DNA of 64,000 nucleotides, from assembly GCA_963772655.1 (NCBI GenBank), contig CAVYYE010000009.1, positions 22,343-86,342 of the forward strand, read 5' to 3'. The translations under genes and the position numbers were made by a program. Origin of the DNA: an uncultured delta proteobacterium. Its GTDB lineage: Bacteria > Myxococcota_A > Polyangia > Haliangiales > Haliangiaceae. Shown here piece after piece: positions 4,522 to 63,506 of the stretch (position 1 is the first letter of the stretch; each line of letters opens with the position of its first letter). The notes below the pieces were generated by a model. That model was not told the origin of the DNA. It saw only the letters and a list, made by a program, of their open reading frames with translations, and did no database searches.

Positions 4522-4604
4522 CCGCGATCCAGGTACCACGTTTGCCGCGGACGATTTCGGGTCGTGCGATAGTGAGATCGCCCGTGCGGCCCATCGAGTT
4601 CTAC

Positions 4605-6101: not shown

Positions 6102-6134
6102 GCGACGTCTCGATCGGCGTGCTACCTTGGATAG

Positions 6135-14940: not shown

Positions 14941-16128
14941 GTGCTCGACCTCGCGATCATCGGCGGCGGCCCCGCCGGCATCTCGACGGCGCTGCACGTC
15001 CAGGCCGCCGCCCCGCACCTGTCGATCGCGGTGCTCGAGAAGGCGCGGTTCCCGCGCGACAAGATCTGCGCCGGCGGCATCGGCGCGCGGGCATTCCGCC
15101 TGTTCGAGCAGATCGGTGTCGAGGTCGACTGCCCGTGCGTCGCGATCGATGCGGTGGCGATGCACGTCGGCGGCGAGACCGTGGTGGTCGATCACCCGCG
15201 CTGCGCCGCCGTGATCCGCCGCTTCGAGTTCGACCACGCGTTCGCGCAGGTCGCGATCGACCGCGGGATCATCGTCCGCGAAGCGTGCGAGGTCCGCGGG
15301 CTGTCGTTCGCCTCCGATCGCGTGGTGATCGAACACGCGGGCGGCACGCTCGAGGCGCGCGCGGTGGTCGGCGCCGACGGCGTCACCGGCGTGACCCGCC
15401 GGCTCGCCGGGCTCCCACGCGGAGAGCTGCGCGCCCAGGTGATCGAGCTCGATACCGGCGCGTCGCCCAGAGACCTGCCGCGCGACACGATCGTGTTCGA
15501 CCTCGCCAACTCCGACCTCCGCGGCTACGCGTGGGACTTCCCCACGCAGGTCGCCGGCGAGCCGCTGGTGTGTCGCGGCGTGTACGCGCTGCACGACGGC
15601 AAGCCCCGTTCGTCTGCACGCGATCATCTCGCGGACTACCTCGCCGCGCGCGAGCTCGACATCGACGACTACCGACTCAAGCAGTTCGCCGAGCAGGGCT
15701 TCGATCCCGAGACCGCGATCTCGATCCCGCGGGTCCTGCTGGTCGGCGAGGCCGCCGGCATCGACATCGCGACCGGCGAAGGCATCGGCCAGGCGATCGA
15801 GTTCGGCGCCGTGGCCGGTCCGTACCTCGCGCGCGCGCTCGCTCGCGACGACCTCGGGTTCGCCGACTGGCACGCCGCGATCGAGCGGCATCACCTCGGG
15901 TTCCAGCTCGCGATCCGGCGCGGCTGCTACCGCGCGTTCTTCGGCCCGCGCCGCCCGACGATCGAGCGCCTGCTGCCGCGCGTTCCCAAGCTGTTCGAGG
16001 TCGGCATCCAGGACTTCGCCGGAGCGCCGCTCGACCCGCTCGCCCTCGCCCGTGGCGCCGGTCAGTTCCTGTCGGCCATCGTCGCGCACAAGACCGGGCG
16101 GCAACGACGAGAGCGAGAATCGACATGA
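14941..16128 (+). CDS. FAD-dependent oxidoreductase of the geranylgeranyl-reductase/FixC family
   Basis: N-terminal 'LAIIGGGPAGISTAL' FAD motif and 'GDAAG'-like region; GTG start at 14941. Confidence 0.55.
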   Translation: MLDLAIIGGGPAGISTALHVQAAAPHLSIAVLEKARFPRDKICAGGIGARAFRLFEQIGVEVDCPCVAIDAVAMHVGGETVVVDHPRCAAVIRRFEFDHAFAQVAIDRGIIVREACEVRGLSFASDRVVIEHAGGTLEARAVVGADGVTGVTRRLAGLPRGELRAQVIELDTGASPRDLPRDTIVFDLANSDLRGYAWDFPTQVAGEPLVCRGVYALHDGKPRSSARDHLADYLAARELDIDDYRLKQFAEQGFDPETAISIPRVLLVGEAAGIDIATGEGIGQAIEFGAVAGPYLARALARDDLGFADWHAAIERHHLGFQLAIRRGCYRAFFGPRRPTIERLLPRVPKLFEVGIQDFAGAPLDPLALARGAGQFLSAIVAHKTGRQRREREST

Positions 16129-38208: not shown

Positions 38209-38850
38209 TCAGGTCAGCTGGACGGGGAACGTCACCAGCGTCGGGGTGCCGGTGGCGGGAAAGGTCATGCCGCGGAGCGCGCGCTGGGCGCACGCGAGCA
38301 GGCCCTTCTGGAACAGGTAGCGCGGCGCACGCAGCTGGCTCTTGGTGACGTGACCGTTGGCGCCGACGATCAGCTTGACCGTGATCGTGGTGCGGAGGTC
38401 GGTGCCGGCGGCCCCCTGGACCACACAGCTGCGGATGGGTCCGTTCTGGCGGGAGACCGCAGCGTTGATCTCGCTCTGCGTGAGCGGCCGGGCATCCGGG
38501 CCGGCGTTCATGTCGATCTTGCGCGACGGCAGCGTCGTGATCTGACCGCGCCACTCGAGCGCGCGATCGGCGGCGGACAGCTTGATCAGCGGCACCGCGG
38601 GCTCGGTCTCGTCGGTGCCGTCGTCGGCGAACTCGGGCCCGGCAGAGGTCCGCCGGTGGTAGCCGCGACGCGGACGCCACCGCCGCTTCTTGCGCTTGTT
38701 GTGGGCGGGCTTGGCATCGGAGGCGACCGCGACCACCCCGGCATCGGTCGGTCCCGCGGCGTGCTGGCCCCACGGTGGCCGCAGCCCGAGATACATTGCC
38801 CCGGCACCGACGATCAGGCCGATGACGAGTCCAACGAGCCAACCGCGCAC
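38209..38850 (-). CDS. Membrane-anchored protein with TonB/AgmX-PglI-like C-terminal domain
   Basis: N-terminal TM 'WLVGLVIGLIVGAGAMYLGL', basic linker, C-terminal 'ITVKLIVGANGHVT...LLACAQRAL...TFPVQL'. Confidence 0.35.
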   Translation of the reverse strand: MRGWLVGLVIGLIVGAGAMYLGLRPPWGQHAAGPTDAGVVAVASDAKPAHNKRKKRRWRPRRGYHRRTSAGPEFADDGTDETEPAVPLIKLSAADRALEWRGQITTLPSRKIDMNAGPDARPLTQSEINAAVSRQNGPIRSCVVQGAAGTDLRTTITVKLIVGANGHVTKSQLRAPRYLFQKGLLACAQRALRGMTFPATGTPTLVTFPVQLT

Positions 38851-38890
38851 AGCTAGCTTGTATCACGCTGCGTCGGGATCGGCCTTCCCG

Positions 38891-39661
38891 ATGCTCGCGG
38901 CACTCGGGATCACGGTGGCGGCGTGGGCGAGCCTGCTCGTGGTGTCGCTGCTCGGCGTCGCGGCCGGGCTCGTCGGCGTGGCGGCGCTGGCGCTCGGACA
39001 GCTGTGCCTGGTGGCGGTGCCCGTGCTCGCGGCGCGGATCGCCAAGCGCGGACCGGCGGCGCTCGGGCTGTCGCGACCGCGCTGGCAGCACGTCGTCGGG
39101 GCGGTGCTGGTCGGCCTCGGCGCGTGGAACATCAACCTCGCGCTGGTGTCGCTGTTGCCGGTGCCCGAGCACCAGACCCGATTGCTCCAGCAGCTCATCG
39201 ATCGGCCGTCGCTGCCGGTCGCGCTGATCGCGATCGCGGTGGTACCGGCGATCTGTGAAGAAGTCGTGTTTCGCGGCGTGCTGTTGCGCGGCCTCGCATC
39301 GCGACTCTACGCGCCGGTCGCGGTCGTGCTGAGCGCGATGGCGTTCGCGGTGTATCACTTGAACCCGATCCAGATGCTCCCGACGCTCCTGCTCGGCCTC
39401 GCGTTCGGAACGATCGCACTGCGCGCGGGCAGCTCGCTCCCCACGATGCTCGCGCACGCGCTCAACAACACGTTCGCCCTGCTGGTAGCGCGCGGCGACG
39501 TACCGGCGTTCGCGAGCACGACGGGTTCGGGCTGGCTGTATCACCACCCGATGCTGATGTTCGCGGGCGCGACCGTGACCACCACCGCCGGGCTCGCGAT
39601 CGCGCTCGCGGGACCGCGGGCCGCGATCCCGAATGCGAGCCTCGACGGGAGACTCGCGTGA
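38891..39661 (+). CDS. CPBP-family (CAAX/Abi) intramembrane glutamic metalloprotease
   Basis: 'EEVVFRG', 'FAVYH', 'HALNN' motifs in a multi-TM protein. Its stop overlaps the GTG of the next gene (GTGA). Confidence 0.7.
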   Translation: MLAALGITVAAWASLLVVSLLGVAAGLVGVAALALGQLCLVAVPVLAARIAKRGPAALGLSRPRWQHVVGAVLVGLGAWNINLALVSLLPVPEHQTRLLQQLIDRPSLPVALIAIAVVPAICEEVVFRGVLLRGLASRLYAPVAVVLSAMAFAVYHLNPIQMLPTLLLGLAFGTIALRAGSSLPTMLAHALNNTFALLVARGDVPAFASTTGSGWLYHHPMLMFAGATVTTTAGLAIALAGPRAAIPNASLDGRLA

Positions 39662-42600
39662 GCGATCAGGTGAACGAGAAGCTGTCGTTCACGACGCTGG
39701 CGCTGCGCCGCACGCTGCCGTCGGACCACCACGACCTCGCCCCCGTCGTCGATGCCAAGGTGGCGGCGTACGGCCCCGAGGAGCGCCTCGGAGAAGAGCT
39801 CGCGCTCGCGATGTCGGAGCTCGCCGTCGAGAGCCAGCCGACCACGGTGGCGCGACACCTGCTGCCCGAGGGCGTTCGACTGGAGACCATCGAGGTCGCG
39901 CTCGCGCGACCCGATCTCCCGGGCAAGCTCGCACGCCCGAACGTCGCCACGATCACCGTGATCGTCGTGCCGGAACTACGGCCGGACGGCGCACTCGCCG
40001 GGCACTGGGTGTTCGTTCCGGTGATCGATCACGCGTGCTACGTGCCGCGCAACGAGCAGATCGCCGAGCGCGTCGCCTCCGAGCTCGCGGTGTTACCGAC
40101 CGCGCTCGCACTCGATACCGACGGGTGGAAACGGCTGATCACCTACGCGCCGGCGCAGCTCGAGGAGCTCGCGGTGCAGCTGTCGACCACGCCCACGGCG
40201 GCCGCCAAGGGCCGCAAGGCGCTCGCCGACGCCGAGCGCAAGCGCCTCGCACACCTCACGCTCGACCGTGCCGGTCGCCGGCTGGAGGTTGCCGATCCGC
40301 CGCCGCCGTGCGTCGGTCGCGACGAGCTGCTCGGCGAGCTGTCGCGCGTGCTCGACGGTCCGCGTCGCGGGATCTTGCTGGTCGGCGACGAGGCGTGCGG
40401 CAAGAGCGCGCTGATCACCGCGTGGGCGGCGCAGCTCGGCCGCGGGGGCCGCACCAAGCACCCGATCTGGACGACGTCCGCCGCCGAGCTGGTCGCCGGC
40501 GCGAGCGGTCTCGGCGAGTGGCAGGCGCGGGTCGCGGCCGTCCTCGACGCCGCACAGACGCTCGATGCGGTGCTGTACTTCGACGACTTCGGCGCGATGT
40601 TCTCCGATCGCTCGCGCGACGGTGGTGTGGAGCTCGCCGCCGCGATTCGCCGGCACGTCGTCGACGGTCGCGTGCGCGTGATCGGCGAGCTCACCCCGGT
40701 CGCCCTCGATCGCGCCGAGCGCCGCGACGTCTCGCTGATCGGCTCGATGTTGCGCATCACCGTGCCGCCCACCGATCCGCCGACCACGATCGCCGCGTGC
40801 CGGGCGTGGGCCGCGTACTGGCGGCGCACGCAACCGCAGCGCCCGCAGATCGCCGAGGCGGCGGTGCCGACGGCCGTCGAGCTCGCGCGCCGCTACCTGC
40901 CCTACCGCGCGTTTCCCGGCAAGGCGGTGCGGTTGCTCGAGGAGCTGCGGGTCGCACACGATCAAGAGCGCGACGAGCACGGCGCCGGGCGCGAGCTCGG
41001 CGACAGCGAGCTGTATGCCGCGTTCTCGTGGTCGACCGGGATCCCGACCGCGCTGCTCGCCGACGATCGCGCGCTGTCGCGCGACGACGTGATCGCGTCG
41101 CTGCGCCGCCGCATGGTCGGCCAGGATCCGGCGGTGCGTCGGGTCGCCGACGCGATCATGGTGGCCAAGGCGCGCCTGCAACCCGCCGACAAGCCGCTCG
41201 CGTCGCTGCTGTTCGTCGGTCCCAGCGGCGTCGGCAAGACCGAGCTCGCCCGCAGCGTCGCCGCGTACCTGTTCGGCGCACCCGATCGCATGGTCCGGCT
41301 CGACATGAGCGAGTACACCGATCCGTGGGCCGCCGAGCGCTTGTTCGGAGCCGACGGCGGCGAGGGCCGGTTGACCGCGGCGGTACGCAGCCAGCCGTTC
41401 GGCGTGGTGCTGCTCGACGAGATCGAGAAGGCGCACTCGTCGGTGTTCGACCTGCTGCTGCAGGTGCTCGGCGAGGCGCGCCTGACCGACGCGCGCGGCC
41501 GCACCACGTACTTCCACAACGCGATCATCGTGCTGACCTCGAACCTCGGCACTCGCAGCGCGCGCGGCCGGCTCGGCATCGCACCCGGTGGGGAAGACGG
41601 GGATCGCGAAGACCGGCGCTACCGCGATGCCGTGCTCGCGGCGTTTCGTCCCGAGCTGATCAACCGCCTCGACCAGATCGTCGTGTTCCATCCGCTCGCC
41701 GCCGACGAGATCGCGCGGGTCGCCGAGATCGCGATCACGCGGCTCGCCGAGCGCCGCGGGTTCATGCAGAGCGGCGCGATCCTCGACGTGTCGCCGGCGG
41801 CGCTCGAGGTGATCGCCGACCGCGGGTTCTCTCCCGAGCTCGGTGCGCGCGCGCTGCGGCGCCACCTCGACACGGCGGTGGTGACGCCGTGTGCGCGCCT
41901 GCTGGCACGCGCCGGCGAGCGACGGCCACGGCGGCACCCTGACGGTGCGCCGCACGAGCGAGACGGTCGAGCGCCCGATCGGGCTCCGGCTCGGCGAAGA
42001 TAATGACGGCGAGCTGTCGGTCGCGCTGTGGCGACGGCCGTCGGCCACCGGACGCAAGCTCGTGCGTTCGGCGCTGGCCCTCGGCGGGCTCCGTCGCGAC
42101 ACCGATCGCGAGATGATCCTTCCCGGCGCGGTGGCGGTGAAGGACAAGCTCTCCGACCACGAGGCCACGCTCGCGACGGCCGCGACCAAGGCCAAGGGCG
42201 GCAAGCCGGCACTCTCCGGGTTCGAGATCGCGCGCATCACGGGCGAGCACGCTCGCCTGCTCGATCGGTGGTCCCGCTGCGATGCCGCGCGCAACGAGCT
42301 GCGCACCGCCGAGGAGCTGTGCCTCGACGCGCTCGCGCGTGACATCGATGCGGTCGACCTGATCGATGCCGCCGTCGAGCAGCGCTACGCGTTCCGGCGT
42401 GACCTGTTCTGGCTGCTCACCGCGCTGCGCCCGGTACGCACCGGCGCGACCCTGCTCGTGCACTCGCCCGACGCGCGCGCCGCGGTGGTCGCGTGGTGCC
42501 GGATCGCGCTGGCCGCCGCCAAGGCGCATGGCTGGCGCGGCTCGGTCCACGTGTGGGGCGAGACCGCGCCGGGCTGGACGCACGGCACCGCCGACCGCCC

Positions 42601-43105
42601 CGGGTGGGGACCGCCGCACGATCTCGAGTGGATCGACGACCACATGGCGCGCAACGCTCCGACCGCGGCGCTGGTCCGCGTTCGCGGTCAGGGCGCCGAT
42701 CTGCTGCTCGGCCTCGAGGGTGGCCTTCACCGGTTCCACAAGCTCGCCGGCGCGGCGTGCCACGCCTGGGTCGACCTGCTCGAGTTCCGTAGCGAGTTTC
42801 GCGACGACGAATGGCGCGCGTTGCCGGCACCGCCGACGCCGCGAACCGCACGCGGCGCGCCGATCCGCGAGGTCATCGCCGGCGCCGATCACGTGACGGT
42901 CGGCGGCGACGAGGTCGACGTGCCGTACGCCGAGCTCGGGCCGCGACTCGCGGAGGTCAGCGTCGTGCGCCTGCTCGCCGCCCTGCCCCGCCAGGACCTG
43001 CTCGACAAGCTGTGGGTGTGGGAGCGCCCGGTCCAGAACGTCGAGAAGCTGCTGAACGCGGGCAAGGGCACCGGCACGTCACCGACCGGGGAGGACGAGC
43101 CGTGA
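39658..43105 (+). CDS. ClpA/ClpB-type double-AAA+ ATPase paralog 1. No canonical Clp N-domain. ~400-aa C-terminal extension reached via an apparent +1 frameshift near 41915-41935.
   Basis: D1 'ILLVGDEACGKSAL...LYFDD'; D2 'LFVGPSGVGKTELA...VVLLDEIEKAH...TSNLG...GARALRR'. C-terminal extension in the adjacent frame (ORF 41891..43105) aligns with the extension of paralog 2. Confidence 0.6.
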
Positions 43106-46100
43106 TCCACTTCCGCGTCGGCATCTACCAGGTCACGCGCGAAGGCGAGGACGAGTGGTACGGCCTGATCCCCGCGCGGTCGTACGCGTACCAGTCGGGC
43201 ACCGGCGAGGTCCGCCTCCGCGAGCGCATGATCGATCGCCTGCGCTCGCTGCTGTCGAACGACACCGCGCCGCGCGATCAGGAGATGTTCCAGCTCCCGC
43301 TCGGCACCGAGCTGGTGCGACTGCCGTTCGACCTCAAGCTCGACGATGGACGCGTCACCGGGACCGTGCCGCTGATCGTCGAGCCGCGATGGACCGGCCC
43401 CGATCGCCAGCAGCTGTTCTGCTACCACCCCGAGCGTCGCGACGAGTGGTTCCTCGCCACCGACCGCGACGACATCGAGGCGACCGCGCCGCTGTTCTTC
43501 CGCCACTTCTGGAAGGCCCTCGACGAGGACACCATCAAGGAGCTGCTCACCGAGGGTCGCGACCGCCTGGTCACGATCGGGTTCTCGACCGAGCCCAAGT
43601 CGCTGCTCGACACGTTGCCCAAGCGCAAGCAGGACAAGCGGGCGGCCGCCGCGTCGACCCGCATGATCCACGTGCTCCGCCACGTCGCGACCGACGAGAC
43701 CCACCGGCTGAGCTCCACCGAACCGGTCTCGGGCGTCCCGCGCTCGCCGTACCGCGAGCGACTCAGCTACCTGCTCGGTGGTGCCCGCCCCCGATCGGTC
43801 GCCGTGATCGGACAACCCGGCAGCGGCAAGACCACGCTGATCGCGCAGTGGGTTCGCGATCGCCTGGTCGAGGATGGCTACTTCCTCCACAAGAACCTCG
43901 ATCGCTGCGCACACGTGTGGCGACTGACGGGCAAGCGACTGATCGCCGGGATGTCTCACCTCGGTGACTGGGAGGAGCGCTGTCTGTCGGTGATCGACGA
44001 GGCGCGCCGGCGGCACGGCATCCTGTGGGTGGACGATCTGCACCTGTGGGGTCAGCTCGGCCGCTCGCGCGATAGCGAGCGCAACTTCGCGGACGTGTTC
44101 CGCGGTCCGATCCGCCGCAGCGACCTCGCGATCGTGGCCGAGATGACACCCGAACAGTTCGCGAAGCTCGAGCGCGACGCGCCCGGGCTCGCCGAGGCGC
44201 TGGCGCCGGTCGCGGTGCCACCGGCGTCGAACGCGGAGACGGCGCGCCTGCTCCTGCACGAGGTTCGCGATCTCGAGTCGCGCCTGCCGACCGAGCTCCA
44301 CCCGTTCGTCCCGCGCACCGCCCTCGAGCTCGGGCCCGCGCTGTTCCCGTGGCGGGCGCGTCCGGGCGTCGCGATCGAGATCGTGCGGCGGATCGCCGAG
44401 CAGGCCGCGCTCGACGGCCAGATCCACGAGGTCATGCCGGCCCAGGTCCTCGAGTACCTCGCGCGCACCACCGGGCTCTCGCCGAGCTTGATCTCCCTCG
44501 ACGAACCGCTCGATGCCGCGCGCGTCGAGGCCACGTTCGCGGCGCGGGTGATCGGCCAACCCGTCGCCACGCGTGCGGCCGCCGACGTCATCGTCAAGGT
44601 GCGCGCCGGGCTCGCGGATCCCAACCGACCGATCCACGTGATGCTGTTCACCGGCCCCACCGGCACCGGCAAGACCGAGCTCGCGACCGCGATCGCCGAG
44701 TACCTGTACGGCGGCGACGAACGCCTGCTGCGGATCGACATGGGCGAGCTCAGCGGGCCCGACGCGGTCGGCCGGTTGATCGGCGATCACTGGAGCAGCG
44801 ACGGCCTGTTGACGTCGCGCGTCCGCGCGCAGCCGTTCTGCGTGGTGCTGCTCGACGAGATCGAGAAGGCCCACCCGCAGGCACTGCACCTGCTGCTGCA
44901 GCTGTTCGACGAGGGTCGGTTGACCGATGCCTCCGGCGAGGTCGCGAGCTTCGCGAGCGCCGTGGTGATCATGACTTCGAACCTGGGCTCGCGAAATGCG
45001 GCGCCGATCGGGTTTGGAGAGACCCGCGATCGGATCCTCGCCGATGTCGCCAAGGCGGTCCGCGAGTTCTTCCCGATCGAGCTATTCAACCGCATCGATC
45101 AGGTGGTGCCGTTCCAGCCGCTGACGCCGGAGGTCGCAGCCAAGGTCGTCGACAAGGAGCTCGCGAAGCTGCTCGCCCGGCGCGGCCTGCGGGAGCGCAA
45201 CACGTTCGTGTACGCGGGGTCGGCGGTGCGGCGACGCGCGGTCGCCGATGCATTCGATCCGCGCTACGGCGCGCGTACCGTCAAGCGCTGGCTCGAGGAC
45301 AAGATCGGCGGCACGCTCACCGATCTACTCGCGGCCGCCCCGCCCGCGCGGCTGCGCGTGGTGCGGCTGTCCGAGGACGATGGCGAGATCGTGGCCACGC
45401 TCGAGCCGCTGATCGAGAAACCCGCGACGCCGGGGCCATACCTGCTCGAGACGTCGCTCGACGTCGCCACCAATGCCCTCGAGCCCGTGATCTCCGAGGC
45501 CGCCGCCGCCCTGTCGCGGATCGCGCGGTCGCCGATGCTCGTTCGCGCGCGTGCCGAGGCCACGGGCGAGCTCCGCTATTACGTCGACGACCTCGCCCTG
45601 CGCGTCGCCGCACTGCGCGAGCTGTTCGGACTCGCTCCCGACACCGCCGTCCACGATTCCGACGACAGCGACGACGACTTCGATCCCTACGACGTCGAGC
45701 CGCTGTACGAGGAACGTCCGACGGGCCCGTCGGGGAGCCCGCAGCGCCGGTCTCGCACCCGCGGTCGAGGCGGCAGGTCGGGGCGCCCGGGACGCGACGC
45801 CCTGGTCGCCGGCATCGCCGAGACGCTCCTGATCGAACGTTCGCTTCCCCGGCTCCTCGATCCCGATGCACACGCGGTCACGGTCGTGCTGTCGCGGGTC
45901 GGCACCAACGCCGATGCCGACGGTCTCGAGATCGCCACCGAGGCTCTCGCGCAACCGACGTGGCTCGACGAGGGCGCGCTGTCGGATGCCGATGGCGCGG
46001 TGCATCCGTTCCGGGCCGGCAACGCGCGCGGCGGCGCGCCCGACCTGTCGTCCGCACGCGACGTCGCGCTCGTGTTGCGCGGACTGTTCGTCGCCGAGGC

Positions 46101-46473
46101 ACTCGCCAACGATCACGGCACGTGGATGGTGCGCGCCGCCGCCGCCGAGCCCGACATCGTGCGGGTCGAGGTGCGGTCCGGCGCACCGCTATCTCCCGCC
46201 GAGGCGCTGCGCGCGCATCACGGCGGTCGTGCCGAGCTCGAGCGCGTCCTCGAGCACGGCGGTGCGTTGCCGCCCAACCCCGACGTGCTGCTGCCGGTCA
46301 CGCGCACGATCACCTACCGGCCGCCGCCGCGCCCCGGCGAGTCGTATCGCGTCGAGATCGAGGACTTCGGAACCGGCTGGCTCGACCGCGGCACCGCGCG
46401 CGATCTGACGAGCGCGATCCGGCGCGCGTGGCATCTCGCGTGGAGCGCCGCGCCGAGCAGAGGATCGCGATGA
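43104..46473 (+). CDS. ClpA/ClpB-type double-AAA+ ATPase paralog 2 (1123 aa, intact), with unique N-terminal domain and long C-terminal extension
   Basis: D1 'VIGQPGSGKTTLI...ILWVDDLH'; D2 'MLFTGPTGTGKTELA...VVLLDEIEKAHP...TSNLGS...YGARTVKR'. GTG overlaps the upstream stop. Confidence 0.7.
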
Positions 46474-48756
46474 CCCGGCCGTCGTTCCGCGTGTTCCTCA
46501 CCAAGCACCACGGCCGCGGCGACCAGCAGCTGTGGTCGGCGGTGATGCTGCGCCGGTTCCGGGTCCTGTTCGACACGCCCCCACCGGCGGCGATGGCCCA
46601 GGACGTCGAGACCGCGCTGCGCCGGCTCGCGCCGCAGGCCGCGCTGATCGCCGATGACGACGACGACGGTGCGATCGATCGCTACGTGTGGACCGAGGAC
46701 CTCGAGTTGCGCCAGATCAACGTCGACATCCATCCCGGACGTCCCGATCCGCGCGGCTACGTGATCGCCTCGGCGACCGTGCCGATCCGCCTCGGCTACG
46801 CGGCCGCCAAGCTCGCCGGCGTGCCGCTGTATCGCGTGATCGTGCCGCGGTTCGACTTCACGTTCGTGACCGAGGATCTTTCTTCGGTGCCCGACACCAT
46901 TCGCTCGCTGGTGTTCGCGGCCCTGGTCGGCGACTCGCCGGCCTCGCTCTACGATCTCCGCCGCGAGGTCGAGGAACAGATCATCGAGTGGAAGCCGATC
47001 GACGCGCCGGTGCACTCGCGCAAGCGCGACGCCAACGAGCCACCGCCGGCACCGACGCTCGAATCGGTGGCCGAGGACTGGGTGGCACTCGCGCGCGCAG
47101 GCCGGTTGCCGGCCACCGTGGGCATCGATCCGATCTACGACGCGGTCGCACCACTACTCGACGATCCGGATCCCAAGGCGAAGCTGCCCAGCTTGCTCCT
47201 GGTCGGTCCGCACGGGGCCGGGAAGTCGACGCTGGTGCGGCGCCTCGCGCGCGGGTTACTCGAGCGCGGCCGCGGCAAGACCGGCCGACGCCGCCGGCTG
47301 TGGGCGAGCAGCGCCGACCGGATCGTCGCCGGGATGGTCTACCTCGGGATGTGGCAGCAGCGCTGCCTCGACATCGTGCGCGAGCTGCACGGCGCCGCCG
47401 ACGTGCTGTACGTCGACCGGCTCGCCGACATCCTGCAACCGTCGGCGGACGGCGCCTCGATCGCGGACCTGCTGGCGCCCGCCGTGATCGATCGCGGCCT
47501 CTCCCTGATCGCCGAGTGCGACGAGCTCGAGCTCGTGCGCGCTCGCCAGCGCGCACCGGCATTGATCGACGCGATGCGCGTGATCCGCGTGCCCGAGGTC
47601 GCGCCCGCGCACGCGATCGCGCTGCTCGAACCGTACGGGAGCCGGCTCGCGCCGCCGGTCACGATCTCGCACGACGGCGCACGCCGCATGATCGAGCTCC
47701 TCGGCGCGTTCCGGCGCGACACGGCCCTGCCCGGCAAGGCGCTCGGGTTCATGGACTACCTCGCCACCCGGCCGGCCCAGGCCGCGTACTCGCTGTCCGA
47801 CGTCACGGAGGCGTTCGGTGCGTGGTCGGGCATGCCGGTACAGCTCCTCGCCCCCGAGCAGGCGCTCGACACCGCCGCGATCGCGACCCAGCTCCGGCGC
47901 GGCGTGATCGGGCAGGACCGCGCGTGCGACGTCGCCGCCCGCGTGATCGCGCGCCTCAAGGCCGGGCTCGACGATCCGCAGCGTCCGGTCGGCACGCTGC
48001 TGTTCGCCGGACCGACCGGCGTCGGCAAGACCGAGCTCGCCAAGCAGCTCGCGCGGTTTCTGTTCGGCGACGCCGAGCGACTGGTTCGCGTCGACATGAG
48101 CGAGCTCGTCACCGGTCCGGCGATCGCGCGCCTGGTCACGCCGTCTCCGGCGGGCACCAGCCTCGCCGACCGGATCCGCCGGCAACCGCTCTCGGTCGTG
48201 CTGTTCGACGAGATCGAGAAGGCCAACGCCGCCGCCTTCGATCTGCTGCTCGGGGTGATCGGCGAGGGCCGTCTGACCGACGCGCTCGGCCGCCTGATCG
48301 ACTTCCGCATGGCGGTGATCGTGATGACCACCAATCTCGGCGCCGCCGATCCGAATCCGGCGGGGTTCGCCTCGCCGACAGGTCGCAGACCACGCCAGCG
48401 CGATCCGCCGGTTCTTCCGGCCCGAGCTGCTCGGTCGCATCGACTCGGTGATCTCGTTCTCGCCGCTCGATCCGCCGGCGCTCGAACGCATCGTCGACCT
48501 CGAGATCGACAAGATCCGGAAGCGACCCGGCCTCGTGGCGAGAGGCCTCCGGCTCGAGATCACGCCCGCGGCACGCACCCGGCTGGCGATGCTCGGACAC
48601 GATCCCAAGCTCGGAGCGCGTCCACTCCGGCGCACGATCGAGGACCTGATCGTCGCACCGCTGTCCGATCGCATGGCCTCGCAGCCCGAGTGGCGAGACG
48701 CGATCGTAAGGATCCAGGCGGCTTCCGACCCCGCCGGCGGCGATCTCGTGGTCTAG
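46470..48756 (+). CDS. ClpA/ClpB-type double-AAA+ ATPase paralog 3, with apparent +1 frameshift near 48370-48385
   Basis: D1 'LLLVGPHGAGKSTLV'; D2 'LLFAGPTGVGKTELA...VVLFDEIEKAN...TTNLG'. Expected sensor-2/C-terminus 'RRFFRPELLGRIDSVISF...GARPLRRTIEDL' is in the +1 frame (ORF 48448..48756). ATGA overlap with paralog 2. Confidence 0.6.
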
Positions 48757-48841: not shown

Positions 48842-49531
48842 GTGGCCGACCCCAAACGTGTCCTGTGGTACCTGCGCAAGGTTCCTCTGCTCGCGGACCT
48901 CGGTCCGGATGCGCTCGCACGGTTGGCAGAACGCGTCGAATTGCGCGAGGCCCGACGACGCGACGTCATCTACCTGCCCGGCGATCCGGGGCGGTCGTTG
49001 TTTTTCGTACACGGCGGCCGGATCAAGGTCAGCAAGGTCACGCGCGACGGCAAGAGCCTGACCCTCGCCTATCACGGTCCCGCCGAGCTGTTCGGCGATA
49101 GCTGCCTGCTCGACGGTGGTCCACGCACCGAGATGGCGGAGGCGGTCGAGAACGCCCTGCTCTCCGAGATCGATCGCGTCCACTACGAGGAGCTGATCCA
49201 CTCGCACCCGCAGCTCGGTCTCGCGATGACGCGCCTCATGATCGTGCGGCGCCGCGAGCTCGAGAACAAGGTCGAGGCGCTCGTGTTCCGCGACGTGTCG
49301 AGCAAGCTCGCCGAGCTCCTGGTCAAGCTCGCCGACGAGTACGGCGTCGACGACGCGCGCGGCACGCTGGTCGCCCTCAAGATCACGCACCAGGAGCTGG
49401 CGAACCTGATCGGGTCGACTCGCGAGACCGTGTCGCTCACGCTGAGTCAGTTCAAGCGCAAGCGCCTGATCACCACCGAGGGCCGCAAGGTGATCATCTC
49501 CGATAGCGAAGCGCTCAAGGCGCTGTACTAG
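48842..49531 (+). CDS. Crp/Fnr-family transcriptional regulator
   Basis: cNMP-binding fold 'IYLPGDPGRSLFFVHGGRIKV' plus C-terminal HTH 'ITHQELANLIGSTRETVSLTLSQF'. Confidence 0.8.
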   Translation: MADPKRVLWYLRKVPLLADLGPDALARLAERVELREARRRDVIYLPGDPGRSLFFVHGGRIKVSKVTRDGKSLTLAYHGPAELFGDSCLLDGGPRTEMAEAVENALLSEIDRVHYEELIHSHPQLGLAMTRLMIVRRRELENKVEALVFRDVSSKLAELLVKLADEYGVDDARGTLVALKITHQELANLIGSTRETVSLTLSQFKRKRLITTEGRKVIISDSEALKALY

Positions 49532-49683: not shown

Positions 49684-52448
<2,765 letters not shown>

Positions 52449-52452
<4 letters not shown>

Positions 52453-54165
52453 TTCACACCTCCCGCGGCGAGCACGGGCCGCCATTCGAATCGGCGATAC
52501 CCCCGGGTCGCGAGCAGCGCATCCATCGCGCGCGCCGCGTCGGGCGTATGGCCGAAGTAGTACGTGGGTTCCTCGATCGGATCCTCGGCGGACGCGCCGA
52601 GCTCGGGCTCGAGGTACAGCTTGCTCAGCAGGTTGCCCTGACTTGTCGTCGGCGAATGCCAGCACGGTCTCGTCGACCACGGCCAGCCCGACGTCGGCGG
52701 CGACCGGCCGACCGGCGGCGTCGGTGGTCCGGATCGCCAGCTTCACCGGGTCGCGCGGCGAGTACGACTTCTTGTCGGCCGTGATCGAGATCTTCAGGTC
52801 GGCGCCGAGCGCGTGATAGGTCAGGCGCTCCGCGAGCGGGGTGTGGCGCTGGTCGAACAGCGTCACCCGCACGACGCCCTGGCGTGCCGGGTCGACGGGT
52901 AGCTCGACCAGCGTCGGCTCGCCGGCGACGACATCGAACGATCCGCTGGCGAGCTGCTTCTCGCGCAACACCGCGACCAGCGACAGCCGCCGCGACGTGT
53001 TGCAGATCGCGCCGACGCGCAGGGTCTTGGCCGAGGTCTGATCGACACTCCGCACCACGCAGCCACCCGGTTTGCTCGCCGGCACATCGAACGTCTTGGC
53101 GATGCCCGCCGGCTTCGTGATCCGCACCGAGTAGGTGCGGTCGGTCGCCGGCACCAGCTCGAACCGGCCCATGCCGTCGTGGATCGACGACAGCCGCGTG
53201 ACGGTGCGCCCGCGGTCGTCGACCACCTCGCCCTCGATGTCGGCCGGCTTGCCGAGCGGCGTCTTCGCCGTGAAGTAGACGCGCCCCGGCACGCCATCGA
53301 TCAGGTCGCCGCTCTCGGGGTAGAGGGCGACGTCGACCTTGTGCAGGACGATCGGGATTCGCTTCTGGATCGACTCGGTGACGCCGCCGTCGTCGACCAG
53401 GATCGTGAGCAGGCCGTCACCGCGCGCGATGCTCGCCGGCAGCGAGAACCGCGCGGTCGCCTTGCCGCCATCGTCCGTGGTCAGCTTCAGGCGCGGCAGC
53501 TCGACGTCGTCGATCGACACCACGCCGACCAGCTCGTGATCGGCCAGCGGCTCGCCGGTGGCGCGCTTGATCTCGATCGCGGCGGTCACCCGGTCGCCCT
53601 CTCCATACGCCTTGCGCAACAGCTCGACGGACTTCTGCAGTCGCGGCGCCTCGTAGGTGTTGATCACGATGGTCTTGACGTCGCGGGTCCCGTCGTCGGC
53701 GGCCATCGTCAGCTTGTATTCGCCGCCCTCGATCTCCGGCGCGAGCGCGAAGTCGTTGCGCGCCACCCCACCCTGCGCGAGCACGCGCTTCTGCGCGACG
53801 ATCGCGCCGCGCGGCGAGGTCAGGGTCATCGTCACGCCGATCGGTGCGCCGCCGACCAGCGTGCCGGTCGCGCGCAGGTCGGCCCGGAACCACATCGTCT
53901 CGCCGGGCTGGTACAGCGGCTTGTCGGTCATCACGTACGCGCGTTTGGTACCCGCGTGCTCGTAGTAGCTGGTGATCGCCTGATCGATCGCCGCCGGTCC
54001 GGCCGACACCTCTGCGGGGGTCAGCTCGGAGATCGTGCGGTCGGTCGATGTCGTGGCGATCGAGATCGGCCGGGTGTGCGTCGCCGGCGGTGAAGACTGC
54101 GGCACGGTGCCGCCTCCACACGCCGCGAGCAGCACCAGCCATGCCTGTCTGGTCGTTGCCCTCAT
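52449..54165 (-). CDS. Alpha-2-macroglobulin N-terminal MG-domain lipoprotein (bait/MG half). Single-nt frameshift near 52633-52648 before its last ~65 codons.
   Basis: Lipobox 'WLVLLAACGGG'; MG-domain-like beta repeats. Alternate frame gives a protein-like C-terminus 'SQGNLLSKLYLEPELGASAEDPIEEPTYYFGH...AGGVK*' ending at a TGA that overlaps the next ATG. The annotated frame gives an Arg-rich junk linker. Confidence 0.55.
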
Positions 54166-58214: not shown

Positions 58215-58949
58215 TTACGCCCGCATCTTGTAACCGACGTTGCGAACGGTCTCGATCAGCAGTCCGACATCCCCCAGCTTCGCGCGTACCCGGCGAACGT
58301 GGATGTCGACGGTCCGCGTACCTCCGGCATATCGGTAGCCCCAGGCGCGCTCGAGCAGCGCCTCGCGGGTGAACACCCGGCCGCGATGCTGGGCGAGGTA
58401 CCGCAGCAGCTCGAATTCCTGGTGCGTGAGCTCGATCCGACGTCCGGCTAGTCGAACTTCGTATCCCGCGATGTCGATCACGAGGTCGTCGATCTTGAGC
58501 AGGTCGTCGTTGCCGAACGTCGCGGTGCGCCAATCGACCTGCCGCATCCGGCTGTACAGCTCCACGGGCACGAGCGGCATCAGGACGAAGTCATCGAACC
58601 CGATCGAGAAGTCGAGGCGGGACAGGCCCCCGACGTTGACCGCGATCAGGATCGGGGTCTCGACGAGCGGCCCCTCGTCCCGCAACCGCTTGATCGTCTT
58701 GTGAGCCCGGGGAACGTCGTCGCCGGCCTCGACGACCACCACCGAGGGGCGCTCGCGGGCCACCTGCTCGAGGTCGAGCCCGCCGAGGTCGAACCGTCCG
58801 AGCGTGACCCGGCACCCGAGCTCCATCAGCACGGAGGCGACGGTTCCGGGTTCATGGGCCCGGTCGGGGTCGGCACAGATCACGATGGCTCGCACGGTGG
58901 GAAGTGATCTCCCCGACTTCGCTCCCGCGTCAAGAGCAGGAGCGAGCAT
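58215..58949 (-). CDS. OmpR-family winged-helix response regulator with atypical receiver (no obvious phospho-acceptor Asp; 'VVVVEAGDD')
   Basis: C-terminal '[14 protein letters not shown]...[11 protein letters not shown]' OmpR/PhoB wHTH; receiver-like N-terminal half; ATG at 58947-58949. Confidence 0.65.
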
Positions 58950-59048
58950 GCATGTCCCGAGTCCGCGAGGGTTGCGCGCGAAACAACATCCCCGTCGCCC
59001 CGTCAGGGCTATTGCCAGGGTCGGGTAACGTGTAACAATTGGAGCCGG

Positions 59049-60257
<1,209 letters not shown>

Positions 60258-60840: not shown

Positions 60841-61296
60841 GTGCCCGAGCTGCGCAACGTCATCGTGTTCACGATCGGCGCCGGGCGCTATGCCGTCGAG
60901 CTGCGGTGGGTGCGCGAGGTCGTCAGCCTCGGGTTCGTGACCAACGTGCCGACTGCCCCCGAGGTCCTCGGCGGTGTGTGCAACCTTCACGGCACGATCC
61001 TCCCGGTGCTCGACGTCAGCGTGTTGCTCGGCGGCAAGCCCGGGCTTCCCGCGCGCCAGGGTGACGGTGCACTGGTGCTCGAGATCGAGGGGCTGGTGTG
61101 CGCGCTGCGCGTCGACCAGATCGATCACGTCGCGTCGCTCTCCGAGACCACGCCCGACAAGGATGGCTCGGGCACCGCGGTGATCGACACCTCCGGTCGC
61201 CCTCTCTCGCTGCTCGATCCCACCAAGCTGGTCCGCCACGCGGTCGACATGGTGGCCGCGTCGGCACCGAACGATCGGGCGGACGCCGGAACCTGA
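60841..61296 (+). CDS. cheW: CheW-like chemotaxis coupling protein
   Basis: 'VIVFTIGAGRYAVELRWVREVV' and 'GGVCNLHGTILPVLDVSVLLG' CheW-domain blocks; GTG at 60841, immediately after the repeat array. Confidence 0.7.
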   Translation: MPELRNVIVFTIGAGRYAVELRWVREVVSLGFVTNVPTAPEVLGGVCNLHGTILPVLDVSVLLGGKPGLPARQGDGALVLEIEGLVCALRVDQIDHVASLSETTPDKDGSGTAVIDTSGRPLSLLDPTKLVRHAVDMVAASAPNDRADAGT

Positions 61297-63506
61297 TGGG
61301 CGACGAGCTCGACTTCGATCCCGAGGAGCTCGCGATGCTCCGCCAGCTGTTTCGCAGCGAGGCCGAGGAATCGCTCGAGGCCGTGACCGAACGCGTGCTG
61401 GCGAGTGGTTCCGCGAAGCCATCCGCCGAGGCCTTGACCGAGATGATGCGGGTCACCCACACGCTCAAGGGGGCCGCGGGCACCGTGGGCCTCCCCGCGA
61501 TCGTGGACCTGTCGCACCGCCTCGAGAGCGTGCTCGCTTCGCTCGCGCGCGACGCCACGCCGTGGATGCCGACCACGGCCGACCAGATCGTCGAGATCAC
61601 CGACGGCATGCGCGGTTATCTCGACCGCGTCGGCGGCGATCCCGCGGCCGCCGAGGCGCTGGCCAAGACGATCCGGCGCCAGATCGATCGCATCGCGCAC
61701 CCGGATCAGCGACGCGGCGCGAACGAGTCGATCCCGCCGCCCGCCGAACCACCCCCGGAGTCGGTGCTCGAGCCGTCTCAGCCCGACACCCCGGAGCCCA
61801 AGACCTGGCTCCGCATCGACCCCGACCGCATCGACGATCTGATGTCGAGTGCCGGCGAGCTGCTGTTCGATCGCACGCGCATCGAGCGGCGCGTGCAGCT
61901 GTTGCGCACGCTCGCGCGCGACCTCGCACGCACCCGCCAGACGTTGCACGACACGCTCGGCACCGCCGAGGACCAAAACGTTCCGACGCGATCGACGCTG
62001 CTGGCCGTCGGCGAGTCCGAGCGCGAGCTGGCGAGCCAGGCGGTGCTGCTGTCGCAGACCACCGCGGCCCTGCTCGACGAGATCGAGGCGCTGCGTCGCA
62101 CGATCGGCGAGCTCCAGCGCGGGCTGACGCGGATCCGCATGGAGAGCGCGAAGAGCCTGATGACGCACGCCGCGCGCACGCTGCGCGCGCTGCGTCGCGC
62201 CACCGGCATCCACGTCGAGTTGCGCACGATCGGCGAGGAGACCGAGTTCGACAAGGCGGTCGCCGAGCAGCTGATCGACCCGATCACGCAGCTGCTCCGC
62301 AACGCGGTGGCCCACGCCGTCGAGCCAGCCGAGGAGCGTCGCGCTCTCGGCAAGCCGCCGATCGCGACGATCACGATCCGCGCCCGCCAGGAGGGCAACC
62401 TGCTGGTGCTCGAGCTGTCCGACGACGGCCGCGGCATCGACACCGCCGCGGTGCGCGAGCGTCTGATCGCGAGTGGCCAGTGGTCGGCCGCCCGCGCGCA
62501 GCTCGCCGACGATGCCGAGATTCTCGACGCGCTGCTCGGAAGCGGCGTGTCGGTGCGCGACGACACCGACGAGCTCGCCGGCCGCGGCATCGGCGTCGGG
62601 CTCGTGCGGCAGACCGTGGCGAGGCTCGGCGGGGAGGTCAAGGTGGCGTCGAGCCCGCACCGCGGCACGACGTTCAGCCTCCGGCTCCCGCTGTCGACCG
62701 CGCTCGCGCAGGCGATGCTGTTCAAGGTCGGCGGGCAGGTCTACGCGATCCCCAACGTCCACGTCGTCGACACCACCCAGGTCGAGCCCGGCGTCACCAC
62801 CACGACGGTGACGCGCCGGGATGGCACGCCCGATCGCGAGCCATTGCCGGTGCTCCGGCTCGAGGAGCTGCTCGGCCACGGCCCGGGCACGGAACGCCGG
62901 CCCGGCGTCGTCGTCTCGTTCGCCGGCAAGTCGCTGGTGTGTACCGTCGACAAGCTCGTCGGGCCGCGCGAGATCATCGTCAAGCCGCTCGGCGAGATGC
63001 TCGCCCCGCTGACGCTGTACGCGGGGGCCACGATCAGTGGCTCCGGCAAGGTCCAGCTGATCCTCGATCCCGCCCAGCTCGTGCGCCGCGCTCACCCCGA
63101 CGCGCCCGTCGAGATGATCGACGACATCGCATCGGCGCCGGTCGTGCTCGCCGGCCGCGCGCTGGTGGTCGACGACTCGCGCGCGATCCGCGAGGCCATG
63201 ACCTCGATGCTCGGACGCGAGGGCTGGATCGTCGATGTCGCCGAGGATGGTGCGCGCGCGCTCCAGATGACCCGCCAGGTCCGCTACGACCTCGTCGTCA
63301 CCGATCTCGAGATGCCCGAGCTCGATGGCTTCGAGCTGATCTCGCGGCTGCGCAAGGACGTCCGCTTCAAGACCACGCCGATCGTGATCATCACGTCGCG
63401 CGCGAACCCCGAGCACCGCCGGCGCGCCAAGGACCTCGAGGTCCGCGCACTGGTCGCCAAGCCGATCACGCGTCGCAAGCTGCTCGAGGCCCTGGCGACC
63501 CGCTAG
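61296..63506 (+). CDS. cheA: Chemotaxis histidine kinase CheA with C-terminal receiver domain (CheA-CheY hybrid)
   Basis: HPt 'MRVTHTLKGAAGTVGL'; HATPase 'ELSDDGRGID', 'GRGIGVGLV'; CheW-like domain; receiver 'ALVVDDSRAIRE...DLVVTDLEMPELDG...AKP'. Confidence 0.85.
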   Translation: MGDELDFDPEELAMLRQLFRSEAEESLEAVTERVLASGSAKPSAEALTEMMRVTHTLKGAAGTVGLPAIVDLSHRLESVLASLARDATPWMPTTADQIVEITDGMRGYLDRVGGDPAAAEALAKTIRRQIDRIAHPDQRRGANESIPPPAEPPPESVLEPSQPDTPEPKTWLRIDPDRIDDLMSSAGELLFDRTRIERRVQLLRTLARDLARTRQTLHDTLGTAEDQNVPTRSTLLAVGESERELASQAVLLSQTTAALLDEIEALRRTIGELQRGLTRIRMESAKSLMTHAARTLRALRRATGIHVELRTIGEETEFDKAVAEQLIDPITQLLRNAVAHAVEPAEERRALGKPPIATITIRARQEGNLLVLELSDDGRGIDTAAVRERLIASGQWSAARAQLADDAEILDALLGSGVSVRDDTDELAGRGIGVGLVRQTVARLGGEVKVASSPHRGTTFSLRLPLSTALAQAMLFKVGGQVYAIPNVHVVDTTQVEPGVTTTTVTRRDGTPDREPLPVLRLEELLGHGPGTERRPGVVVSFAGKSLVCTVDKLVGPREIIVKPLGEMLAPLTLYAGATISGSGKVQLILDPAQLVRRAHPDAPVEMIDDIASAPVVLAGRALVVDDSRAIREAMTSMLGREGWIVDVAEDGARALQMTRQVRYDLVVTDLEMPELDGFELISRLRKDVRFKTTPIVIITSRANPEHRRRAKDLEVRALVAKPITRRKLLEALATR

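Follow-up and report, generated by a model that had tools for sequence, protein, structure and literature searches.

Clp/Hsp100 machines are textbook homo-hexamers. In eukaryotes, the paralogous type-II AAA+ proteins Pex1 and Pex6 form a double-ring heterohexamer in which D1 is catalytically dead, D2 is active, and the pore loops and N-domains differ from subunit to subunit, and in ribosome quality control the double-ring AAA+ unfoldase Cdc48/p97 is coupled to a release-factor-like protein, Vms1/ANKZF1, which is a catalytic, separate polypeptide of the eRF1 type recruited through a VIM motif. In this study, a window of 64,000 nucleotides from an uncultured delta proteobacterium (assembly GCA_963772655.1, contig CAVYYE010000009.1, positions 22,343 to 86,342) was analyzed, where three tandem genes encode double-AAA+ ATPases, referred to as A1, A2, and A3 and collectively as the triad. 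The three genes form a conserved operon across Myxococcota, and their products appear to combine a degenerate first AAA+ module (D1), an active second module (D2), and, in A1 and A2, a C-terminal extension that probably derives from class-I release factors (RFs).

A phylum-wide Clp-type system of three specialized paralogues would be a new bacterial architecture for Clp/Hsp100, and the current labels, 'ClpA/ClpC' or 'AAA family ATPase', mask a distinct family. In the literature searched, no account was found of the architecture of three paralogues, of its degenerate D1, of the division of pore-loop roles, or of the RF-derived extension, and a full-text literature search found no published description or functional study of the family. 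To our knowledge, a release-factor-derived domain fused to an unfoldase has never been described, and none was found in the literature searched.

Comparison with described AAA+ machines

ClpA and ClpC share with the triad the tandem AAA+ modules without an M-domain, the D2 catalytic motifs, the D2-small domain, and, at the position of the ClpP-docking loop, a tripeptide of the [ILV]-G-[FL] type whose role in the triad is putative. Unlike them, the triad lacks Clp_N, the D1 catalytic Glu, the D1 Arg fingers, and the D2 GYVG loop, and one homo-hexamer-forming gene is replaced by three co-encoded paralogues with new N-domains and RF-like C-extensions. ClpB/Hsp104 was the best-scoring solved relative for D2 (211 bits, E. 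coli ClpB residues 529-856), but the D1 match reached only 27 bits, and both Clp_N and the M-domain coiled coil, which provides the coupling to DnaK, are absent from the triad. Pex1/Pex6 differs in belonging to the classic (NSF/Cdc48) clade, in comprising two paralogues, and in having no RF module; the hetero-oligomer of the triad remains putative. Compared with Vms1/Cdc48, the triad would carry an RF1/2-type, apparently non-catalytic module fused to a Clp-type ATPase, and its role at the ribosome is hypothetical.

The triad proteins were compared with curated NCBIfam equivalog models, for which the cut-offs are 993 bits for ClpA, 1232 for ClpB, 885 for ClpV, and 1900 for ClpG and ClpK. Scores were three- to nine-fold under these cut-offs, with ranges of 192-272 bits for ClpA, 213-311 bits for ClpB (TIGR03346), and 160-246 bits for ClpV (TssH, TIGR03345) of the type VI secretion system (T6SS), and best equivalog scores of 311 bits for A1, 262 for A2, and 213 for the frameshifted A3. 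No T6SS genes were found in the window or in the related loci. The triad proteins are members of the Clp/Hsp100 superfamily that fall outside every named subfamily, in keeping with the non-standard Clp arrangement proposed in the initial annotation, as they are assigned to none of ClpA, ClpB, ClpV, ClpG, or ClpK.

A degenerate D1 and a complete D2

Each of A1, A2, and A3 contained two P-loop modules, with matches to AAA_2 (E = 1e-32 to 5e-39) and ClpB_D2-small (E = 1e-16 to 3e-7), and to AAA_16/AAA_lid_9 in the weaker D1 module. The ClpA model TIGR02639 was colinear with the proteins across both modules (approximately 528 residues), and the ClpB models matched in two separate stretches only. 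No Clp_N (PF02861) hit was found in A1-A3 at E <= 0.01, and no M-domain insertion was present, as the span from D1 to D2 was like that of ClpA (528 versus 529 model positions). These Pfam and NCBIfam searches bore out the initial annotation both in the AAA_2, ClpB_D2-small, and CPBP families that were matched and in the lack of a Clp N-domain and a ClpB middle coiled coil.

Motifs were counted over 39 A1, 54 A2, and 76 A3 sequences and aligned with ClpB. The Walker A motif of D1 (GxxxxGK[ST]) was kept in all three paralogues. Its Walker B motif reads DD or EN in A1, ED or DD in A2, and DR in A3, with the catalytic Glu lost, and the Arg fingers were lost as well, the positions of ClpB R331/R332 being occupied by G-S, E-A, and D-A. 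Because Walker A is kept while the catalytic Glu and the Arg fingers are gone, D1 should bind nucleotide without hydrolyzing it. D2 was complete in all three paralogues, including Walker A, a DE Walker B, the sensor-1 Asn, the Arg finger, and a GAR sensor-2, the last matching the predicted signature in the form GAR(A/T/P)(L/V)(R/K)R, and D2 is the putative motor of the triad proteins. The two sets of module signatures named initially therefore fared differently: those of D2 were recovered, and those of D1 were reduced to Walker A.

The pore loops were divided among the paralogues. The D1 loop, conserved phylum-wide, reads AG(A/M)SGLG in A1, AGMS(Y/H)LG in A2, and AGM(V/T/K)YLG in A3, so that its aromatic position is an invariant Tyr only in A3, Tyr or His in A2, and Gly in A1. 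The D2 GYVG loop was five residues shorter and without Tyr in all three, and a D2 pore-loop aromatic occurred only in A2, as the Trp of GD.W.P(D/E)G. Additionally, an x-G-[F/I/L] tripeptide was found in every paralogue approximately seven residues after sensor-1, at the position of the ClpP-docking loop. It is IGF, LGF, or VGF in 38 of the 54 A2 sequences, AGF, VGF, or PGF in A3, and LGI, IGI, or LGL in A1, and in the alignment with the ClpB/ClpA chimera 5ofo the A2 IGF falls on the IGL of ClpA. A Myxococcota-specific architecture of the Clp/Hsp100 type, in which the D1 tier is inactive, the D2 tier is active, and the pore loops are specialized by paralogue, is very probable.

Distribution of the triad among Myxococcota

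The triad was mapped by domain-specific tblastn in ten loci with called genes and 80 metagenome loci, the latter fetched with the A3-specific pattern GM[VKT]Y[LV]G[MQ]W. A1-A2-A3 is a three-gene operon conserved across Myxococcota. The order A1 N-domain, A1 C-extension, A2 N-domain, A2 C-extension, A3 N-domain was colinear in 41 of 43 loci having at least 7 kb upstream of A3, and a 4-nt overlap was present at 38 of 49 A1/A2 junctions and 67 of 81 A2/A3 junctions. The N-domain and C-extension of each paralogue matched only their own slot in other loci. One triad was present per locus examined, in a context that was vertically conserved within clades and did not resemble variable islands.

For A2, hundreds of full-length relatives with 64-77% identity were found, mostly labeled Kofleriaceae, and a profile search of 1.8 billion representatives returned full-length A2-like proteins that fall into more than 100 clusters at 50% identity, are 1100-1240 aa long, and matched from the N-domain through the C-terminus. 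Named hosts included Archangium, Hyalangium, Cystobacter, Vitiosangium, Sandaracinus, Sorangium, Labilithrix, Byssovorax, and Kofleriaceae. A1, A2, and A3 are mutually 30-36% identical over the AAA core. The old triplication suggested initially was supported, as each paralogue has its own orthologues across Myxococcota, and these conserved, paralogue-specific orthologues also exclude a mis-assembly of ordinary Clp genes.

A full-length A2 scan of genome contigs was swamped by the generic DEIEKAHP pattern and retrieved loci of ordinary ClpB/ClpC (L002-L081), in all of which the paralogue-specific N- and C-domains were missing. Looked up by exact sequence, neither the A2 of the window nor the protein P0001 was on record. 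A 1927-aa protein from a metagenome-assembled genome (MAG) of Polyangiales, P0391, was considered as a 'Rosetta-stone' fusion of A2 and A3 and was rejected as a probable frameshift artefact, because its last ~45 A2 residues are replaced by a Gly/Ala/Arg-rich sequence that looks out of frame.

The genes around the triad were restricted in distribution. A CPBP-family protease gene, which precedes A1 in the window, adjoined A1 in 10 of 39 loci, all from a Kofleriaceae-like clade to which the window belongs, and it was absent at the triad in all 29 loci from other lineages, among them those of Archangium violaceum and Sandaracinus amylolyticus. The divergent gene g0, the Crp/Fnr-family regulator, and a transglutaminase gene were limited in the same way (10 of 39 loci, and none of the 29 elsewhere), and no conserved flanking gene was found outside Kofleriaceae when the flanking open reading frames (ORFs) of 31 loci were clustered. 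CPBP is a lineage-specific addition to the triad, and the functional unit is taken to be the three-ATPase operon because CPBP, g0, and Crp are clade-limited while the triad occurs without them. The initial annotation had treated CPBP and the three ATPases as a possible conserved module; the comparison of gene neighborhoods across Myxococcota did not support this and left the triad as the conserved unit.

Related N-domains and release-factor-like C-extensions

The terminal domains were compared by profile-profile alignment (hhalign) using 32-59 non-redundant sequences per domain. The N-terminal regions, initially described as unrelated, proved homologous, with E-values of 1.2e-8 between A1 and A2, 2.4e-8 between A1 and A3, and 9e-4 between A2 and A3. 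Their model is alpha/beta, unlike the all-alpha Clp_N, and the fold is predicted to be HicB-N-like, with a tandem beta-beta-beta-alpha arrangement in the A2 N-domain. HicB antitoxins are recognized by a DNA-binding C-domain and an adjacent HicA; the triad N-domain did not show this combination, and no HicA partner was found at the loci. The ~380-aa C-extension was common to A1 and A2 (E = 4.3e-7), close to the ~400 aa noted initially. From the homology of the N-domains and of the C-extensions among the paralogues, it follows that the ancestor of the triad would already have had the N-domain and probably the C-extension too.

The relationship of the C-extension to release factors had gone unnoticed in the initial annotation. 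An AlphaFold2 (AF2) model of the A2 C-extension, on which all structure searches rest, shows a beta-hairpin and a three-helix bundle along with a disordered linker of acidic/basic character and an alpha/beta domain. In Foldseek searches of the PDB, the top 38 hits were all RF1, RF2, or mtRF1 (E = 1.7e-6 to 8e-4, probability 0.95-1.00), and the next hit had E > 0.02. The domain-1 helical bundle and the domain 2/4 superdomain of the RF fold are both present in the predicted structure.

Because the structure searches hang on one model, the C-extension profiles were also aligned by hhalign to E. coli prfA and prfB; the triad loci themselves contained no release-factor genes. The A1 profile matched RF1 and RF2 with a probability of 93% (P = 2.9e-7, 191 columns) and was colinear with RF1 residues 12-213, which span domains 1-2; the A2 profile matched with P = 1.8e-4. 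Against RF domain 2 alone, P was 3.3e-5 for A1 and 6.5e-5 for A2. In comparison, P was 0.24-0.92 in 15 controls, which comprised nine unrelated E. coli proteins, a reversed RF alignment, and five column shuffles. The best-conserved motif of the C-extension, V.GP.AG..LaLE.G.HRF in A1, falls on the RF domain-2 strand ISG..YG.L..E.G.HR.

Relative to RF1/RF2 and their truncated relatives PrfH and ArfB, the C-extensions of A1 and A2 share the domain-1 bundle, the domain-2 core, and this strand motif. They differ in having no GGQ, PxT/SPF, or sequence-detectable domain 3/4, in carrying an inserted acidic/basic disordered linker, and in being fused to an AAA+ motor. The alignments and the model suggest that the C-extensions derive from class-I release factors, specifically from the three-helix bundle of domain 1 and from domain 2 (PCRF), and the C-extension would be an old, catalytically stripped derivative of them. 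The A1 motif 'EGGLHRF' was considered as a vestigial GGQ (domain 3) and rejected, as hhalign places it on the E.G.HR of RF domain 2 and as GGQ occurrences are scattered by chance. GGQ occurs in 7 of 39 A1 and 4 of 54 A2 full-length sequences, at positions that are all different and non-homologous except that the near-identical A2 copies in L106 and L108 share one.

A probable counterpart in Myxococcus xanthus

Eight clpA/B/C genes are listed for M. xanthus DK1622 (Table S1 of PMC11423568), among them MXAN_4823, MXAN_4824 as well as MXAN_4825, which are consecutive ClpA/B-family genes encoding proteins of 1149, 1127, and 836 aa (PMC11423568). From the size pattern and adjacency, MXAN_4823-4825 is probably the counterpart of A1-A2-A3 in this tractable species. 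The three proteins were not found among the members of the triad-family clusters, and a literature search on the locus tags returned only one transcriptome paper (PMC6617876). There, the genes are described as one operon and are induced by chloramphenicol, with log2 fold changes (log2FC) of 3.57, 2.67, and 2.61 at 8 h and of 1.47, 2.17, and 1.92 in adapted cells; the strongest gene in the data set reached 4.65 (PMC6617876). This places the operon among the more strongly chloramphenicol-induced ones. If MXAN_4823-4825 is orthologous to the triad, a ribosome inhibitor induces the operon, which would fit a translation-linked role.

Proposed function and alternative explanations

Complementary specialization, strict co-occurrence, fixed gene order, and translational coupling suggest that A1, A2, and A3 form one hetero-oligomeric, double-ring machine, probably a hexamer, and such an assembly is somewhat favored. 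The best explanation of the triad as a whole is a heteromeric unfoldase directed at translation complexes, a proposal made tentatively and put at a little under an even chance. The RF-like modules of A1 and A2 would serve as tRNA- or RF-shaped docking elements that recruit the ATPase ring to ribosomes, or to translation complexes whose A site is accessible, e.g. drug-stalled ribosomes. The HicB-like N-domains would engage substrates or adaptors, and the D2 motor would remodel or extract a bound protein or nascent chain, which might be handed to ClpP. Taken by itself, the ribosome-directed function is doubtful. The more specific reading, in which the GGQ-less RF modules insert into the A site of a stalled ribosome, such as an antibiotic-arrested one, and D2 clears the block, whether it pulls out the nascent chain or some bound factor or splits the ribosome, and perhaps feeds ClpP, is rather unlikely as a joint claim. 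If true, it would make the triad a fused, Clp-type counterpart of the eukaryotic Vms1-Cdc48 ribosome quality control, and the triad could contribute to the tolerance of myxobacteria to ribosome-targeting antibiotics. The fusion of an RF-derived module to an unfoldase suggests a testable link between ATP-driven protein remodeling and the ribosome.

Several observations weigh against a translation-directed unfoldase. The confidence of the C-extension model is moderate (pLDDT 69 overall, 80-89 in the cores), and the model covers the extension of A2. GGQ is not conserved in the C-extensions, PxT/SPF is missing, and the residues after E.G.HR(F/W) are variable in A1 and different in A2. The last ~110 residues of the extension gave no signal against RF domains 3/4 (P = 0.19-0.63), and searches of the C-extension with hidden Markov models (HMMs) at E <= 10 returned no Pfam family, PCRF/RF-1 included, and no RF chain from the PDB, so that the relation shows only in profile-profile and fold comparisons. 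The RF module may have been re-used for a non-ribosomal purpose. No ribosome or translation gene was a conserved neighbor of the triad, and the flanks differ in every lineage. Shortened D2 loops with no aromatic in two of the three paralogues are unusual for a processive threading motor, and hetero-oligomerization is inferred from sequence. Two of the three ATPase genes are frameshifted in the window, and two loci depart from the full triad: in L136 (metagenome contig Ga0208882_1000095), A1 is missing from the 5.2 kb upstream of A2-A3, and in L163 (metagenome contig SXGS01690159.1), A3 stands by itself, with neither A1 nor A2 in the 8.2 kb upstream. For M. xanthus, the orthology of MXAN_4823-4825 is drawn from size and adjacency, and 1920 genes were differentially expressed with chloramphenicol, so that the induction is not specific (PMC6617876).

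An alternative is a general unfoldase or disaggregase of proteostasis, which may partner ClpP but has no specific link to the ribosome; the RF-derived module and the HicB-like N-domain would then be re-used only for substrate binding, for assembly, or as adaptors. That the core belongs to Clp/Hsp100 is clear, the x-G-[F/I/L] tripeptide stands at the ClpP-loop position in all three paralogues, the catalytic and codon-reading motifs of release factors are lost, translation genes are not nearby, and the response to chloramphenicol could be generic stress, as another Clp gene, MXAN_4832, also rises (PMC6617876). However, an RF fold kept with its E.G.HR core on two paralogues phylum-wide is hard to square with an irrelevant shape, canonical ClpA, ClpB, ClpC, and ClpX are present in the same genomes (PMC11423568; ClpX also in the window), and a degenerate D1 with aromatic-poor D2 loops is unlike a bulk disaggregase. 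A general unfoldase is considered possible, on the unlikely side.

A module in which the ATPases feed or extract substrates of the CPBP protease, serving membrane-protein quality control, secretion, or toxin/immunity, is improbable. In the Kofleriaceae-like clade, CPBP is catalytically intact and GTGA-coupled to A1 wherever the upstream sequence suffices, and the transmembrane (TM) protein g0 is always divergent from it. Yet the triad occurs without CPBP in every locus from the other lineages, where no flanking family is conserved, and neither a TM segment nor a membrane anchor is present in the ATPases. Moreover, the whole ~25-kb neighborhood of the clade is syntenic (MFS, transglutaminase, PdxA, DUF3108, PP2C), so the adjacency of CPBP and the triad may reflect shared descent only, and a CPBP-centered membrane module would be clade-restricted at best. 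The HicB-like, antitoxin-like N-domain on an AAA+ effector also brings an anti-phage or conflict system to mind, which is very improbable: PADLOC matches (DolB, PDC-M37B, IetA, mad8) were partial and confined to the generic AAA core, with no hit for CPBP, the C-extension, or g0; effector partners such as HicA or a nuclease are absent; and the triad is phylum-wide, single at each locus, and vertical in context within clades, not a variable island. A known defense system was rejected on the same ground of generic AAA hits.

Organization of the locus

The window has a G+C content of ~70%, and genes were placed by a third-position GC (GC3) frame plot and the ORF list (Table 1). The plus-strand run of CPBP, A1, A2, and A3 is joined by 4-nt stop/start overlaps, GTGA at 39658-39661 (CPBP/A1), GTGA at 43102-43105 (A1/A2), and ATGA at 46470-46473 (A2/A3). 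The four consecutive genes with overlapping ends described initially were recovered in this way, and so were two of the three junctions; the A1/A2 site, initially given as 43104, lies slightly upstream. The Crp/Fnr gene reported downstream of the ATPases was likewise identified by Pfam.

Table 1. Coordinates and features of the genes in and next to the triad operon (window positions).
Feature	Position	Strand	Description	Support
g0	38209-38850	-	213 aa; N-terminal TM helix, C-terminal AgmX/PglI (TonB-C-like) domain	NF033768 (E = 3.9e-8, under the curated cut-off)
CPBP	38822-39661	+	CPBP (Rce1-like) glutamic intramembrane protease	PF02517, NF041647, catalytic motifs
A1	39658-43105	+	Double-AAA+ ATPase, ~1148 aa after removing one extra base near 41917	Pfam/NCBIfam
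A1 N-domain	39658-40302			
A1 D1	~40303-41067		Degenerate	
A1 D2 and D2-small	~41068-41913		Putatively active D2	
A1 C-extension	41918-43102		Release-factor-like	
A2	43102-46473	+	Double-AAA+ ATPase, intact, 1123 aa	
A2 N-domain	43102-43737			
A2 D1	~43738-44496		Degenerate	
A2 D2	~44497-45333		Putatively active; invariant pore-loop Trp, IGF tripeptide	
A2 C-extension	45334-46470		Release-factor-like	
A3	46470-48756	+	Double-AAA+ ATPase, ~761 aa after removing one extra base at 48375-48378; no C-extension	
A3 N-domain	46470-47129			
A3 D1	~47130-47864		Degenerate; invariant pore-loop Tyr, Walker B 'DR'	
A3 D2 and D2-small			Putatively active D2	
Crp/Fnr-family regulator	48842-49531	+		PF00027, PF13545, PF00325

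Frameshifts in A1 and A3

The frameshifts reported initially in two of the three ATPase genes are present in the given sequence and consist of one extra base each, as seen by tblastn and alignment. In A1, tblastn of intact orthologues placed the frame switch between 41916 and 41918 with no residue lost, and nucleotide alignment showed a 1-nt insertion on the plus strand (41916-41918; GGCG[A]GCGAC versus GGYG-CCGA in homologues). In A3, the switch lies between 48374 and 48379, with the extra plus-strand base at 48375-48378, inside a variable loop after the AGF tripeptide, where orthologue residues 627 and 629 flank the site (tblastn). A1 is uninterrupted in L001, L082, L083, and L085-L090 (1135-1144 aa in L001, L082, and L083), and A3 is uninterrupted at ~750 aa in 120 orthologues among the matches listed, with intact references of 753-754 aa. 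The A3 of L001, a 6.26-Mb contig of the Kofleriaceae MAG GCA_047600425, is also frameshifted, at 15030-15080, right after the D2 Walker B. A programmed frameshift in A3, an idea raised by this split, was rejected, as the sites differ and the 120 listed orthologues are intact. Because orthologues are uninterrupted and the site in L001 is different, the shifts are neither programmed nor conserved, and the insertions appear to be assembly errors or recent, inactivating mutations rather than a feature of the system.

If both 1-nt insertions were real mutations, the operon would be decaying in this genome, leaving A1 without the release-factor-like domain and A3 without the Arg finger and D2-small, a state compatible with the other explanations of the triad. 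Neither insertion falls in a homopolymer run, no frameshift against homologues was seen in ~15 kb of flanking genes, and the A3 of L001 is broken as well, at another site. On the other hand, two hits in 9 kb versus none in 15 kb is not a significant difference, and such indels are frequent in long-read assemblies. Downstream of the shifts, the shifted frames keep a high GC3, secondary stops and other lesions are absent, and the segments are still 56-76% identical to orthologues. Decay is held to be the less probable account, though one with a real chance.

CPBP, g0, and the wider neighborhood

The first gene of the run was annotated initially as a CPBP protease, an assignment upheld by PF02517 (Rce1-like; E = 4.9e-22, 78.5 bits against a cut-off of 22.4) and by the intact catalytic motifs EEVVFR, FAVYH, and HALNN, which correspond to EExxxR, FxxxH, and HxxxN. 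The protein was most similar to the C-terminal CPBP part of NF041647 (E = 5.9e-41) and scored under every NCBIfam equivalog cut-off. The ATG at 38822 is a likelier start for it than position 38891, because the N-terminus MTSPTSQPRTASLYH agrees with homologues. Described CPBP/Rce1-like proteases, such as MroQ, the myxosortases, and the ABC-permease-CPBP fusions, have the Pfam threshold and the three catalytic motifs in common with the window protein; unlike in those systems, no CTERM-sorting substrate or bacteriocin gene was found near it, and its link to AAA+ proteins is clade-specific. Among clade loci with enough upstream sequence, CPBP was coupled to A1 in the window, L001, L082, L083, L091, L092, L101, L106/L108, and L116.

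The 5' ends of CPBP and g0 appear to overlap head-to-head by ~29 nt (38822-38850), and likewise in L083 (5791-5816), so each promoter would sit inside the coding sequence of the other gene. g0 was kept at the same position only in L001, L082, L083, and other Kofleriaceae-like loci. The Crp/Fnr regulator of the window is 95% identical to that of L083 (15703-16392), where the adjacent ATPases are ~70-75% identical, which points to an unusually strong constraint on Crp/Fnr. Other partners were seen elsewhere: in L088, from a distant lineage, A1 is coupled by a 4-nt overlap to an upstream 719-aa Trans_reg_C-AAA_16-globin protein (4399-6558) instead of CPBP, and in L089 (Archangium violaceum) the gene for a 482-aa protein without a Pfam hit shares 8 nt with the end of A3. 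A promoter and terminator scan of 37.4-49.8 kb gave nothing useful, the sole terminator-like site lying inside the Crp gene, and neither did an Rfam search over the whole window.

The wider context is that of an ordinary chromosome, with genes for an MFS-cNMP protein, a transglutaminase, an alpha-2-macroglobulin-like protein, PdxA, DUF3108, PP2C, ClpX, and a CheA-like kinase. The ClpX homologue (zf-C4_ClpX, AAA_2, D2-small) is encoded at 58908-60257 (+), ~10 kb 3' of the triad, and is followed by the CheA-like hybrid kinase at 61065-63506; no clpP was identified among the window ORFs scanned. Between positions 22001 and 32000, the G+C content is lower (0.64-0.67 versus 0.69-0.76 elsewhere), and this segment, which may be horizontally acquired, encodes a PSCyt2/PSD2 (DUF1549/DUF1585) protein, several ORFs without a Pfam hit, a methyltransferase, and a PPDK_N-domain protein. 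Directly after Crp, a 1493-aa bacterial alpha-2-macroglobulin-like gene (MG2, A2M_BRD, A2M, TED) is located at 49684-54165 (-). In the related locus L084, this gene was called as two genes of 572 and 927 aa, and a short alignment in another frame between the two loci suggests a frameshift in one of the two assemblies.

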